The notes beneath the pieces were generated by a model, which made no database searches, was not told the origin of the DNA, and saw nothing but the letters and a program-made list of their open reading frames with translations. DNA of 51,548 bases, from the sequence record NC_079180.1; one strand, written 5' to 3'. This document shows, one piece after another, positions 45,102 through 50,283 of this stretch (the stretch's first letter is position 1; every line of letters begins with the position of its first letter). The position numbers were made by a program, and so were the translations under genes. This DNA is from Escherichia phage SKA49.

Positions 45102-45743
45102 ATGGCTACTAAACATGGCTTGGAGATGTTGTTATCTCAGTATTACAACTCGCCAAACTTAAAGAAGTATATTTCAATCTTTGTTGAAGAGTTTGCGGAA
45201 GTTAAACAAGCCATGTCCGATTCTGTAAAGTATCGCTACCTTGCAGATTCCTTTGGCGTCATGGTTGACGACATTGCCTATATTGTTGGCACTGAACGTG
45301 TAATCTACGGCGCCGAAGCTCTCGGATACTTTGGCTTCTATCGTGACCCGTCTGCATTCCCAGCTGGGGATGACAACGACCCAGATATTGGCGGCATACT
45401 TAAGTCCGATTATGATAAAGATTCTGGCGACTTTATTCGTACAGACTTGCAACTTAAGAATGCTATCAAGGCCAGGATTACCAAAATCACTGGCAACTGT
45501 AATATCGAGCAAATCATTACATACCTTGAGCTTCTAATTGGGCGTGACTTAGACCTTGAAATCAAAGAAGGGTTTAAGCGTATGGACTACATTGTCCACG
45601 AAAGTTTGTCTGTTGCTGATAAGGTTATGCTGGCCCACACGATTCCACAATTTAAACCTGTGGGAATCACTGTAACACTTCGAGATAATAATGGCGTTAT
45701 CGACCTGGTGTTCAGTTCTAAAGACTACCCGCCGGAGACATGA
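45102..45743 (+). CDS. baseplate protein (gpI / Mu gp48-like)
   Basis: 213 aa following J-like gene. Confidence 0.45.
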   Translation: MATKHGLEMLLSQYYNSPNLKKYISIFVEEFAEVKQAMSDSVKYRYLADSFGVMVDDIAYIVGTERVIYGAEALGYFGFYRDPSAFPAGDDNDPDIGGILKSDYDKDSGDFIRTDLQLKNAIKARITKITGNCNIEQIITYLELLIGRDLDLEIKEGFKRMDYIVHESLSVADKVMLAHTIPQFKPVGITVTLRDNNGVIDLVFSSKDYPPET

Positions 45744-46888
45744 TGACTAAACGCTTAACATTTAAATTCCCTTGGGCGCAAGATGGTGAAATTGCTGACC
45801 CAGACTTAGACACAACCAACCCAAGTTATGTTGCAAACCGATATGCAAGCATGGGCTGGGAAGCTGAGAAGCCACCAAACGAATGGCAGAACTTCTTAAC
45901 ACAGATTAGTGATTTAAAGATTATGTCTTTACTCTTCTCTGGTGTGGCAGAGTTTGATAGTAGTGTTACATATCAAACTGGTGCAGTGTCTGTTCTCAAT
46001 GGTGTTGTGCAAATTAAGGTTGCCTCTGGCTGGGAACAAATCCTAGACATGAAGACTGTAGATTATCTAAATGATGTTGCAGCATTGAAACTCATTTATG
46101 ACAATCACATGGCTACCGAGAATCCGCACAACGACACAGTTGATACGCTGGTGGATAAAGGAAGAACAAAGGCAAATATTGATATTGCCTTTGGGAGTGC
46201 TACCGACCCTCAAACAATTGTTTATCACAAATTGCAACAAGGTCGTGTTCACCAGGAAACTCCAGAGCAGGTTGGCACTCTTCCAACATCTGGTGGTACA
46301 TTCACTGGTCCTGTGTCGTTCCTTGCTGGGATGAAATTTGCGACAGACAACACTGTTAGTATGAACGGTGCAACAGGTCGTTTGGAACTTCGTAGTGGTA
46401 GTCGTATTCTGTCTATTGATGCTCTAGGAAATGTTGTCTGGAGCATAGTTGGTGGTGAAGAATATCCCGTGATGACGGAGCTGAATTACTCAGAGTTTCA
46501 GATTCGTTGGGGAAACAGATTTGCCCTACCGACACCATACTTGAGTATGAACCTATCAGCCAGTATTAACGATGCTTGCTCTGTTCGTGGTTGGAAGATT
46601 TCAACAACGGGAACACCAGTATTTCACCCTATGGGTGGGTTGAAGATGGATGACAATACTGTAACCTTCTCCGGATTTGATGTTTCTTGTCCAACCACAA
46701 TAGTGGCCTTTACAAGAAATGCTTCCGGCACTCTTGGGAGAGGTAACTCTGATGCTCCGTCTGGTGGTTATACAAGCCTTAACACACTCCTTACGAATCT
46801 TGGAATAGTTGATGCTGCTTACGTCGTGAGTATCACTTGCTATCCAACATTAACCGCTTATCAGAAATCAATGTTAGTGAGGCCATAA
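45740..46888 (+). CDS. tail fibre protein
   Basis: 382 aa after baseplate genes. Confidence 0.5.
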   Translation: MMTKRLTFKFPWAQDGEIADPDLDTTNPSYVANRYASMGWEAEKPPNEWQNFLTQISDLKIMSLLFSGVAEFDSSVTYQTGAVSVLNGVVQIKVASGWEQILDMKTVDYLNDVAALKLIYDNHMATENPHNDTVDTLVDKGRTKANIDIAFGSATDPQTIVYHKLQQGRVHQETPEQVGTLPTSGGTFTGPVSFLAGMKFATDNTVSMNGATGRLELRSGSRILSIDALGNVVWSIVGGEEYPVMTELNYSEFQIRWGNRFALPTPYLSMNLSASINDACSVRGWKISTTGTPVFHPMGGLKMDDNTVTFSGFDVSCPTTIVAFTRNASGTLGRGNSDAPSGGYTSLNTLLTNLGIVDAAYVVSITCYPTLTAYQKSMLVRP

Positions 46889-48279
46889 TGGCGCTTCGTC
46901 CTAAATTAAATCGCGTATGGACTTCAAATAACACTGTTGCCAGACGTGACCCAGGGGATGCAAAGTATCTCCAAGGTTGGGTTGCTGAGATACCAACCTA
47001 TCAAGTTTTAAACTATTTGCAGTATAAAGTTGATACCACAATGCTTGCTCAGGCGGAACGTGGAATCTTCGAGTGGGGTGGTGATGTTTCTTATGGTGTT
47101 GGCAGTTTGGCTTGGGACGAAACAAACAAAACTATTTATGTTTGTACTGTAACAAACCCAAGCAAGACTTTGGCCCCAAGTGCCAACCCAGCACAATGGA
47201 GTCCGAGCGCCATTCAGGTATCTCGTGCCAACTATGACTCTGTTGTATCTGCAATCAATACCCATATTGCAAACCGAGCAAACCCTCACCAAGTAACTGC
47301 TGCACAGGTTGGTACATACAACCGTGCTGAAATGGATGCACTTGTATCCAACTATCGAGCAATGGTGTTGGCGCATGCCTCTGACTACAACAACCCACAT
47401 AAGCTAACTGCTGTTCAAGTTGGTGCTGTTCCTGTAACTGGTGGTGAGTATACTGGTCAGGTAACTATGCCGACCGCCTACTTCAATGCCTCCAAGACTG
47501 CACAACTGTTGCAAGACAATGGACTATGGTTGAAGAATGGCAACTACTTACTAGGTATTAACGGTACGACAGGGAATCCCGAAGCAGGAACTGCTGCAAG
47601 CAAGTCCAGGATAGTCACAGAATCTAACTTCCCAGACTTGAAAGCTGCACAAGAGCCTAAATATGCAGTAGAAGCGCCATACTATGAAATGGCACTAATA
47701 GGTTCTGTAAACATACTTCGTGGCGCAGGAACATTCAGTACCGGAGACTCCGAGCCTATGTACTTGGCATCATCTGGGAATGCTCTAACATTCGACAGCA
47801 CACCAACCAGCCCAGCACAGAGATTCGAAGCCTCTTCACAACTTCCTGCTAGCTCAAGTATTACAGTCTGTGCCGATGTTATGAGGGTGTCACAGTCTGA
47901 TACGAGTGATGGCAACTGGCAGCTGAGTTTCGGCACCGCAGATTTCAATATCACTATTGGGTACAATGGGTATACGACCATCAGGTTCAGAGGCCCAACA
48001 GGAGGTATTGTTGCAATGCAGGGGGTAATCTCCCAAGATTTGAAAACTGTTGGTGTGTGGAACAGGTTGTCGGCAACACTTTCTGGAAGCACTATTAAGG
48101 TGTTTGTAAACGGTGTACTGCTATTCTCCAGAGAGCAAGAAGTGGGTGTTGCAGTTGGGAGAGCGCCATTTATAACTAAATGGAGTATGGTTGGGGCTAC
48201 CACAAACTCTAGAATATCTATTAGGTCTTTTAGGTTGTGGAACTCGGCACTAACAGACAAACAAATTTCAACTTTATAG
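46888..48279 (+). CDS. tail fibre protein
   Basis: ATG with GAGG RBS; in frame with track ORF 46837..48279. Confidence 0.5.
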   Translation: MALRPKLNRVWTSNNTVARRDPGDAKYLQGWVAEIPTYQVLNYLQYKVDTTMLAQAERGIFEWGGDVSYGVGSLAWDETNKTIYVCTVTNPSKTLAPSANPAQWSPSAIQVSRANYDSVVSAINTHIANRANPHQVTAAQVGTYNRAEMDALVSNYRAMVLAHASDYNNPHKLTAVQVGAVPVTGGEYTGQVTMPTAYFNASKTAQLLQDNGLWLKNGNYLLGINGTTGNPEAGTAASKSRIVTESNFPDLKAAQEPKYAVEAPYYEMALIGSVNILRGAGTFSTGDSEPMYLASSGNALTFDSTPTSPAQRFEASSQLPASSSITVCADVMRVSQSDTSDGNWQLSFGTADFNITIGYNGYTTIRFRGPTGGIVAMQGVISQDLKTVGVWNRLSATLSGSTIKVFVNGVLLFSREQEVGVAVGRAPFITKWSMVGATTNSRISIRSFRLWNSALTDKQISTL

Positions 48280-48287
48280 GATTCAAA

Positions 48288-49361
48288 ATGGCTAAAGGTT
48301 ATTCTTTAGATGCGCTAGTTCAAGAGCACTACATTAAAGATGCAGTTGGTTTAGATGTCAGCAATATAAATGATAAGTGGGGCGCGGATAATGTAGGGAC
48401 ATTCTTCCAAAACCTGCATGTAAATGCAACAGTTGAGAACGGGTATCCTTACGGAGCCTCGGCAGGCAACTTGGAAGTGCTACTTACTAATGCCGGTACT
48501 CTTGATAACTGCGTACAGAGATACACAAACTTTAATGATTTAAGAATGTGGATTCGCTCTCAAGACCGTGGAGCTGGAAACAGGACTTGGACACCTTGGA
48601 TGGAGCTTATAAATGCGAACAACATTTATAAAGCAATCTACCCAATTGGAATTGTTCTCCAGTTTGACAATGCCACCAACCCAAATAACTCCTTCACAGG
48701 AACATCTTGGGTACAAATCGTAGATGGTCGCTCTGTTCGTGCAGCGTCTTCTGCGGAAGTTGGCACTGAACTTGGTCAGATTGGTGCGATTGTTGGTGAA
48801 GATGAAGTTACCATTGCTGTGGCTAACCTCCCATCCCACACTCACAACATGCGTAACCATACACACTCCATCGCGTCCCACACACACACTATGGCCCACA
48901 CGCACTCAATCAACCACGACCACGGTGCAGTGACCTCAAGTTCAGGTGGTGCTCACACGCACAGCTTAAGCGGCACTGCTGCTTCTGCTGGTGCACACCA
49001 ACACACAGAAGGTTCGCCGTTTACTGGTGATGTCAATTTTGGTGCTACCTCAAGCACCAGTAAGAATAATATCAAAGACTGGTTGTACAGCCCATCTACA
49101 AGATACCCGCTAACCTCATCTTCCGGTGCCCATACACACAGTGTTAGTGGAACTGCCAACTCTGCTGGCGCTCACACGCACTCTGTAGACCTGCCTAACT
49201 TCACTGGCACTAGCGGAGGCTCTAGCGCAGGAAGCACTGGTGGAACAGCTTTGACAACTGGTGCTCCTAGCTCTAACGAATCGGATGCGACTGGTGGTGG
49301 CTCTAAGCTGACCGTCCGTAACGCCTCACACTATTATGCCCTCTGGAAACGAGTGGCTTAA
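48288..49361 (+). CDS. tail fibre protein with collar-like domain and HxH repeat tract
   Basis: HTHNMRNHTHSIASHTHTMAHTHSINHDH followed by GGAHTHS and GAHTHS repeats; ATG with AGGA RBS; in frame with track ORF 48237..49361. Confidence 0.55.
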   Translation: MAKGYSLDALVQEHYIKDAVGLDVSNINDKWGADNVGTFFQNLHVNATVENGYPYGASAGNLEVLLTNAGTLDNCVQRYTNFNDLRMWIRSQDRGAGNRTWTPWMELINANNIYKAIYPIGIVLQFDNATNPNNSFTGTSWVQIVDGRSVRAASSAEVGTELGQIGAIVGEDEVTIAVANLPSHTHNMRNHTHSIASHTHTMAHTHSINHDHGAVTSSSGGAHTHSLSGTAASAGAHQHTEGSPFTGDVNFGATSSTSKNNIKDWLYSPSTRYPLTSSSGAHTHSVSGTANSAGAHTHSVDLPNFTGTSGGSSAGSTGGTALTTGAPSSNESDATGGGSKLTVRNASHYYALWKRVA

Positions 49362-49369
49362 GGAAAATA

Positions 49370-49711
49370 ATGGAACGATTATCCATTCAGATGTTTATCG
49401 ACCTCATGCACCAATATGGTGTTTGGCATGGATTGCTGGCTGGTCTGACGGCTTTAATCCGTGGGGCATATGAAAGTGAGGGATTAAGCAAAGCGTTGCT
49501 GGATGCAGCGCTATGCAGCTTGATTGGCCTGTTTGCCTTTCATGTTGCTGGCACATTTGAAACTTTTACGACTAACGTCACAATGCAGTTAGTTCTGGCT
49601 ATCGTGATTGGTGTCATTGGTGCTAACCTCATTATCACAACTGTCAGGGAAAGTTTCTCTGGCGCAATCAAACAACTTAACCCTTTAACGTGGTTCAAGA
49701 AGGCACGATGA
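49370..49711 (+). CDS. holin (lambda S-like)
   Basis: AAGGA RBS; 113 aa with hydrophobic segments GLLAGLTALI, LCSLIGLFAFHVAG, LVLAIVIGVIGANLIITTV. Confidence 0.65.
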   Translation: MERLSIQMFIDLMHQYGVWHGLLAGLTALIRGAYESEGLSKALLDAALCSLIGLFAFHVAGTFETFTTNVTMQLVLAIVIGVIGANLIITTVRESFSGAIKQLNPLTWFKKAR

Positions 49712-49728
49712 AATGATAAGGAACTCGA

Positions 49729-50283
49729 ATGCTATCATTCAAAGTCCTTGCACTTCTGGCAGCTTTAGTTCACATCAACGCCCCAGCTTCGGTTGGGGCA
49801 GTGAATTCTGCTATTACAGATTTTGCAAGTCATTCTTATTTAAATGGAAGTCTGAAACTATCTTCTTCACAACGCAAAGAGCTAGAATGCTACACTAAAG
49901 TTATCTGGTATGAAGCTCGCGGAGAAGACAAACATGGAAAGATTCTGGTAGCTAATGTCGTCCGTAATAGAACTGAGTTCGGGAAGCCATTCGCTAACAC
50001 CGTTTGTGATGTTGTCTATCAACGCAATCAATTTGCATGGACACGAGAAGCAAAGAAGAAGAATGCTCAATGGAAGCATGTAGCAAAGATTAATTATGCC
50101 ACAGAACAACAACAAGTTCTGGACACCATTAGTGTTGCAATCTCTTTTGTACTATTTAATCAACCCTCTGTCACCAAAGCAACCCACTTTTGTACAGCAT
50201 CTGAGAAGTGCAACTTCAAGAATGTTAAAGGTCTGGGACGTTATGGTGGCCATAAATTCTATGAGTATCTAGGAAATCTGTAA
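49729..50283 (+). CDS. SleB/CwlJ-like cell wall hydrolase with N-terminal signal sequence (endolysin candidate)
   Basis: [25 protein letters not shown]...[15 protein letters not shown]; N-terminus [24 protein letters not shown]; AAGGA RBS. Confidence 0.7.

Follow-up and report, generated by a model that had tools for sequence, protein, structure and literature searches.

The stretch of DNA analysed here (the window, 51,548 nt, NC_079180.1) is from Escherichia phage SKA49 (Carltongylesvirus, Chaseviridae). Its region 30000-51548 has about 88-90% DNA identity to Carltongylesvirus phages such as Mangalitsa, ST32, flopper and phiEcoM-GJ1, and the relatives have the syntenic gene order of baseplate wedge, baseplate protein, fibre 1, fibre 2, 357-aa fibre, holin, endolysin and nrdB. 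Fibre 1 (45740-46888, + strand) and fibre 2 (46888-48279, + strand) are N-terminal paralogues, with the N-terminal part of each belonging to phrog_8147, and their genes overlap by 1 nt (TGATG). Fibre 2 also has a C-terminal Laminin_G_3/ConA-like lectin domain, and its N-terminal half matches the short tail fibre gp92 of Pakpunavirus P7-1 (PDB 9ZD7, E=8e-10). Since these two fibres are encoded upstream of the 357-aa fibre (called fibre 3 below), SKA49 has three fibre-like proteins. Directly 3' of the fibre 3 gene lies the lysis cassette (49370-50283), composed of a holin (Phage_holin_3_1, phrog_126) and a SleB-type cell-wall hydrolase that has a hydrophobic N-terminus and is annotated in Mangalitsa as a SAR endolysin, with nrdB following. 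No tail-fibre chaperone gene of the T4 gp38 type is adjacent to the fibre 3 gene or lies between it and the holin gene.

The fibre 3 gene (48288-49361, + strand) is an intact open reading frame from ATG to TAA, encoding, with the stop codon included in these coordinates, 357 aa. As read from the sequence, a Shine-Dalgarno element AGGA (48278-48281, + strand) is present 6 nt 5' of the ATG and overlaps the fibre 2 stop codon; a ribosome-binding site is annotated at the equivalent place in Mangalitsa, and the annotated homologues have the same start position. The whole gene matches phrog_2097 tail fiber (E=6e-39), its product is annotated in SKA49 as "putative tail fiber protein" (database entry P0001, 100% identity), and more than 2,000 database proteins are related to it. 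The SKA49 genome paper calls the ORF a chimeric tail fibre and assigns it a "pyocin knob" domain; a term search of the paper gives no mention of the His motifs (PMC10282059).

The protein contains 21 His among its 357 residues and nine HxH motifs, starting at aa 184, 191, 198, 204, 210, 223, 237, 282 and 296. The dense tract quoted in the preliminary description, HTHNMRNHTHSIASHTHTMAHTHSINHDH, is found exactly at aa 184-212, and the spaced repeats that it named are located at aa 220-226 (GGAHTHS) and at aa 280-285 and 294-299 (GAHTHS), with a further GAHQHT at aa 235-240. In 20,000 residue shuffles of the protein, nine or more HxH motifs were never reached, the maximum being six, and among the ORFs in the six frames of the window no other His-ladder protein is found, all the others having at most two HxH. 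A recent long tandem duplication as the source of the repeats is rejected, because the DNA repeat search gives only short CAC-ACN-CAC codon echoes.

Domain layout, conservation and mosaicism

The protein begins with a peptide, MAKGYSLDALVQE (aa 1-13, 48288-48326, + strand), that is at least 90% conserved in the sets of 56 to 120 homologues, where the next domain is variable. These 13 residues are nearly invariant and unlike the N-termini common to fibres 1 and 2. The peptide is presumed to be an element that docks the fibre to the virion, the mode of attachment to the baseplate being presumed likewise. Docking onto the C-termini of fibres 1 and 2 was considered and rejected: those C-termini are variable and show no co-variation with the knob of fibre 3, as in flopper, where the knob is SKA49-like, yet the C-terminal half of fibre 2 is not.

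Following the peptide is a knob-like beta domain (aa 16-110, 48333-48617, + strand), which has the beta-sheet fold of pyocin and phage fibre knobs, is variable and exchanged by recombination, and in SKA49 is flopper-like. The N-terminal part of the collar domain (YPIG...NPNN...LP, aa 111-183, 48618-48836, + strand) has the gp10/gp11/gp12/gp37 fold. The collar is split, with the needle inserted in it and the C-terminal strand closing it. The outgoing needle strand (aa 184-240, 48837-49007, + strand) is aligned to T4 gp37 883-931 and carries seven HxH, of which five are 6-7 residues apart and are followed by two GxHxH at 13-14 residues. Then comes a hypervariable stretch, the presumed head or tip (aa 241-278, 49008-49121, + strand), with a mean identity of 18% versus 64-82% in the flanks. 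The returning needle strand (aa 279-338, 49122-49301, + strand) has GxHxH at 282 and 296 and then a conserved Gly/Ser/Thr-rich stretch. The C-terminal strand (aa 339-357, ending in KLTVRNASHYYALWKRVA; 49302-49358, + strand) closes the collar and is highly conserved; the pattern N..QPY....W.R.A is common to the relatives, and the C-terminus of T4 gp37 is VKNIAFNYIVRLA.

Two AlphaFold2 (AF2) models were made. The first, with 56 close homologues, is confident only for aa 20-110 (overall pLDDT 58), and Foldseek with it gives only weak matches. The second is a monomer of aa 105-357 with 90 diverse sequences, where the pLDDT is 90-96 for the collar, 92-95 for the last 14 residues, which are packed against the collar, 51-78 for the needle arms and below 50 for the head, the latter having no confident fold.

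Conservation was calculated with the best 120 database homologues (52-87% identity) and also with the 56-homologue set. Among the former, 119 have nine HxH and one has ten. All 18 motif His are invariant in both sets, so a lack of conservation of the repeats, by which the preliminary description said it would be refuted, does not occur, and among the best 120 the Gly two residues before motifs 6-9 is invariant too. The mean identity of these 120 homologues to SKA49 is 0.82 in the dense HxH tract, 0.64 around motifs 6-7, 0.74 around motifs 8-9 and 0.79 in the Gly/Ser-rich stretch after them, and it is 0.18 at aa 241-278 between motifs 7 and 8. A much more diverse alignment, with identities as low as about 28%, still shows LPxHxH, the first motif, without variation, and in it motifs 6 and 8 keep a conservation of at least 90%.

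The fibre region is mosaic. Through fibres 1 and 2 the DNA identity to Mangalitsa is 0.9-1.0. At the junction of fibres 2 and 3 (48280-48300) it falls from 0.93 to 0.56 while the value for flopper climbs from 0.59 to 0.91, giving a sharp recombination junction, and over aa 5-104 of fibre 3 it is 0.50-0.56 to Mangalitsa and 0.79-0.91 to flopper. The identity to Mangalitsa recovers at the collar, and in the head the values are 0.42 (Mangalitsa), 0.36 (flopper) and 0.78 (phiEcoM-GJ1). As the breakpoints are located at the gene start, the knob/collar border and the head, the exchange follows the domain borders.

Two further features of the upstream genes are noted here. The lectin-like half of fibre 2 (47600-48280) has about 90% identity to Mangalitsa and phiEcoM-GJ1 and 0.36-0.6 to flopper; it is a separate exchange module that does not co-vary with the knob of fibre 3. 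In fibre 1 an isolated dip of 100 nt is present at 46100-46200, with an identity to Mangalitsa of 0.64 versus 0.93-0.98 in the flanks, which may reflect either the exchange of a small patch or an indel.

Homology to T4 gp37 and comparison with known fibres

With the SKA49 fibre as a single sequence, phmmer gives no match in the PDB. With the family profile, hmmsearch against the PDB gives the T4 gp37 tip (2XGF) with E=5.1e-8 over aa 182-317, and hhalign against T4 gp37 785-1026 gives a probability of 97.2% with E=3.4e-11. The GxHxH motifs are in register in the profile alignment, which pairs GGAHTHS and GAHQH of SKA49 with GGHTHS and GEHSH of T4, and the two return motifs of SKA49 with GNHSH and GDHSH of T4. 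This motif-to-motif match lends support to the proposal of the preliminary description that metal is coordinated in a trimeric fibre tip as in long tail fibres. The family profile also matches the long tail fibre of cyanophage A-1(L) (8KEC, E=0.007), where a similar dense HxH run occurs directly after "LPSHQH". It is noted that, despite the dense run in 8KEC, the words 'histidine', 'HxH' and 'metal' are absent from the text of the A-1(L) paper (PMC10966104).

In Pfam, aa 114-235 match Gp10_C with 40.9 bits (cut-off 27), while PF07484 Collar, of the gp12/gp37 type, gives no match for SKA49 even at E<=10. For PF03335 Phage_fibre, a 14-residue GxHxH repeat, SKA49 scores 8.7 bits (E=2.9), below the gathering cut-off of 20 bits; the T4 gp37 tip scores 40.7 bits and also matches PF07484, and precomputed PF03335 matches are present in two homologues (P0044 and P0060). 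A weak sub-threshold match of aa 188-240 is to YmaF, a Bacillus family (E=0.06), which may share the HxH repeat. The possibility that the protein is an orthologue of T4 gp10 was rejected, as only the C-domain model matches (aa 114-235) and not the full 602-aa architecture. The gp10 chains in the PDB align to the family profile over only about 30 residues, and the N-terminus of SKA49 is knob-like.

In the T4 gp37 tip (about 811-1026, 2XGF) the collar is split by an out-and-back needle, GxHxH motifs 14 residues apart flank a small variable head, and the C-terminal strand closes the collar; SKA49 has the same arrangement, with the hypervariable stretch in the place of the head. The T4 needle (D11, which includes the head) is inserted in the collar D10, and seven iron atoms lie along it, each bound by three HxH copies (PMC6957217). 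H929 and H931 of T4 gp37 are essential (PMC6957217). Seven to nine motifs are present in the gp37s of the T-even phages (PMC6563267), and SKA49, with nine, has two more than T4 gp37; the site density is similar, with 6.6 residues per site in SKA49 and about 7.7 in T4 gp37. The motifs are also distributed differently: in SKA49 seven of the nine are outgoing, five of them dense, and the return is Gly/Ser-rich, whereas in T4 four of the seven are returning and the outgoing partner is Ser/Thr-rich. Moreover, SKA49 fibre 3 is a stand-alone 357-aa protein while the T4 tip is the end of a 1026-aa fibre, and in SKA49 the collar scores as Gp10_C rather than PF07484 and no gp38-like chaperone gene adjoins, unlike in T4.

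Among the other systems, gp34 of A-1(L) (8KEC, 379 aa) has a gp37-like arm that binds cells (PMC10966104); this arm carries HxH motifs as SKA49 does, with low overall sequence similarity, and gp34 is anchored to the wedge by an N-terminal shoulder domain whereas the N-terminal domain of SKA49 is knob-like. The long (gp27) and short (gp26) tail fibres of Felixounavirus Bas63 end in a collar-needle-head tip (PMC12609058) with six to seven HxH, as SKA49 does with its nine, and tblastn with the SKA49 fibre gives matches in many Felixounavirus genomes; unlike in Bas63, the tip in SKA49 is a separate gene after two fibre genes. In pyocin fibres and central spikes, three HxH copies form an octahedral Fe(II) site (PMC6116203). 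The R-type pyocin fibres (6CL5/6CL6/6CU2) have a single iron site and a lectin-like foot, without the collar-inserted needle of SKA49. The C-terminal collars of T4 gp10, gp11 and gp12 are without its long multi-site needle insertion, and the SKA49 fibre is in turn without the other domains of gp10 and gp12.

Length coupling and motif register of the proposed hairpin

The hairpin was tested with 128 relatives from 50%-identity clusters, and in each the widest gap of the His-motif series was taken as the boundary between the two strands. Counted from the first return motif to the C-terminus, the chain is longer than the outgoing motif span by a median of 17 residues (IQR 15-19). In 118 of the 128 relatives this excess is within ±8 of this value, and in those the slope is 1.02 with r 0.97; with the outliers kept, all 128 give a Pearson coefficient of 0.49 and a Spearman coefficient of 0.75. 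Such a coupling of the outgoing and return lengths was matched in none of 5000 permutations. With both strands counted, the outgoing span per motif has a median of 7.0 residues (10th-90th percentile 6.4-8.2), and the outgoing span is correlated more closely with the total motif number (r=0.88) than with the outgoing motifs alone (r=0.72). The same pattern is fitted by SKA49 (7+2 motifs; span 56, return 76; 6.6 residues per site) and by T4 gp37 (3+4 motifs; span 49). The length coupling and the site density fit an out-and-back trimeric needle that would carry a ladder of His6 metal sites, the out-and-back topology being derived here from sequence-length statistics rather than coordinates.

The positions of the motifs in SKA49 agree with such a ladder. 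In the outgoing series precisely two gaps, of 13 and 14 residues, are of double length, the return has precisely two motifs, 14 apart, and an antiparallel mirror (sum 514-515) drops both return motifs into the double-length gaps. In the AF2 model, strands aa 207-210/305-308 and 225-231/284-290 mirror about 515, like the even-ladder solution. The contact of G964 with H929 reported in T4 gp37 (PMC6957217) suggests, by analogy, that the register may be a few residues off the even ladder.

Among 149 cluster representatives the number of HxH is most often 7 and varies between 0 and 17; 47 of them have dense runs of at least four HxH and 26 have nine motifs, and therefore the arrangement of SKA49 is ordinary within the superfamily. 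Larger numbers are found in three metagenome relatives, P0195 (511 aa), with 17 HxH, nine outgoing and eight returning at a spacing of 14 residues, and P0150 and P0182, with 14 motifs each; all three still obey the relation of a return equal to the outgoing span plus about 17.

Proposed architecture, its alternatives and implications

Based on these results, we propose, with a probability of roughly 0.85, that the product of the gene is a homotrimeric fibre of the T4 gp37 type, having a collar, a needle and a head, with a nine-site metal ladder in the needle and the head as the specificity site. In the model, the chain has five parts: the 13-residue peptide, the knob-like domain, the collar, a hairpin inserted in the collar, and the head at the far end of the hairpin. 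The collar would open at aa 111-183 and be closed by the last 19 residues, and between the two the hairpin would go out over aa 184-240, form the head with aa 241-278 and come back over aa 279-338. In the trimer, six strands would build a thin beta needle, in which the three copies of each HxH would surround the axis and together hold one buried octahedral metal ion with their six imidazoles. SKA49 would thus hold nine sites, seven from the outgoing strand and two from the returning strand in the double-length gaps, at about 6.6 residues per site, and the dense His tract would arise because five consecutive sites come from the outgoing strand; the Gly/Ser/Thr-rich return stretch would pack against this tract. 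The metal ladder would register and stiffen the three chains. We infer the trimer formation and the metal binding of the SKA49 fibre by homology. The ion is Fe(II) in the T4 gp37 and R-pyocin fibres of solved structure (PMC6957217, PMC6116203), and the Zn of gp12 may have come from the preparation as an artefact (PMC6116203); in the SKA49 sites, which would be occupied by analogy, the bound metal could be Zn or another ion.

The preliminary description had taken the His tract as the module that may define receptor binding. The assignment to a tip module holds, and the assignment of specificity to the tract does not, since the tract would be an invariant buried scaffold while the head and the knob vary; that it is a scaffold follows from the invariance of the motif His together with the out-and-back fit. 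Specificity is most likely in the variable head, and perhaps also in the recombining N-terminal knob. The position of the head corresponds to the tip of T4 gp37 (about residues 933-959), where tip residues bind LPS and OmpC (PMC6957217), and aa 241-278 are presumed from the sequence to be the receptor-contact region. In R pyocins, too, the second knob domain is the most diverse region and is linked to the killing spectrum (PMC6116203). Chaseviridae are reported to use LPS (PMC13340011), and by analogy LPS is likely to be the receptor of SKA49; in the literature, no receptor or chaperone data specific to the 357-aa fibre of SKA49 were found.

The metal-ladder structure is left undisputed by the reading, which we regard as unlikely, that the 357-aa protein is not the primary receptor-binding fibre and would, like T4 gp10, gp11 and gp12, be a short fibre or pin held at the baseplate, with a needle whose main use is irreversible anchoring at a late stage or stabilisation of the baseplate, and with the host range set by the upstream fibres 1 and 2, one of which has the lectin-like domain. 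This reading concerns the role only, and with respect to the role, the segment that separates the two collar halves has its homologue in the gp37 needle and not in gp10, the gene is the most diverged and mosaic of the module and has a hypervariable head, together the signature of a specificity determinant, and the similarly sized gp34 of A-1(L) is a receptor-binding long fibre.

By contrast, two other explanations concern the His residues themselves. It could be supposed, as the protein is His-rich and a 'Ferrojan horse' hypothesis has been discussed for marine phage fibres (PMC11705849), that the His are exposed metal chelators or pH sensors, for example displaying iron to siderophore receptors. 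We consider this highly improbable. In every solved relative the HxH ligands lie buried inside the fibre, on its three-fold axis (PMC6957217, PMC6116203); the spacing of one motif per 7 residues and the coupling of the outgoing and return lengths are structural constraints for which an exposed chelating tract has no need; the motif His are invariant while the surface positions between the motifs are variable; and the reported use of LPS by Chaseviridae also speaks against it. The last explanation, that the HxH pattern arose by chance or from low complexity in a frame that is non-coding or was called wrongly, has in its favour the repetitive look of the CAC-ACN-CAC codons and nothing further. 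It is already refuted by the shuffles, none of which reached nine motifs, and by the conservation in more than 2,000 database proteins, with the ORF intact and having its ribosome-binding site and the gene order syntenic in the relatives.

Returning to the gp37-type fibre, it is noted that no new mechanism is involved, the HxH iron ladders of gp37-type tips being well documented in T4 and Felixounavirus, and that the SKA49 fibre is a separately encoded nine-site addition to the known collar-needle-head tips of this type. As the tip module is encoded as a separate 357-aa gene, a more speculative proposal can be made, namely that the free-standing tip is an exchangeable cassette that would dock by its N-peptide, have a swappable knob and head, need no chaperone of the gp38/Tfa type and be registered by its nine-site ladder. 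We regard this proposal as unlikely. It would add a rule for the family, by which about every 7 needle residues a His6 site is supplied by either strand, and if true, this rule could guide the design of needles with a chosen length.

The present analysis gives a structural reading for the main variable fibre of the Carltongylesvirus (Chaseviridae) coliphages, a group under study as therapeutics against avian and urinary pathogenic E. coli. The reading separates an invariant scaffold (aa 184-240 and 279-338), which would be a metal ladder, from the variable knob (aa 16-110) and head (aa 241-278), and it points to the knob and the head as the sensible parts to engineer when the host range is to be changed.
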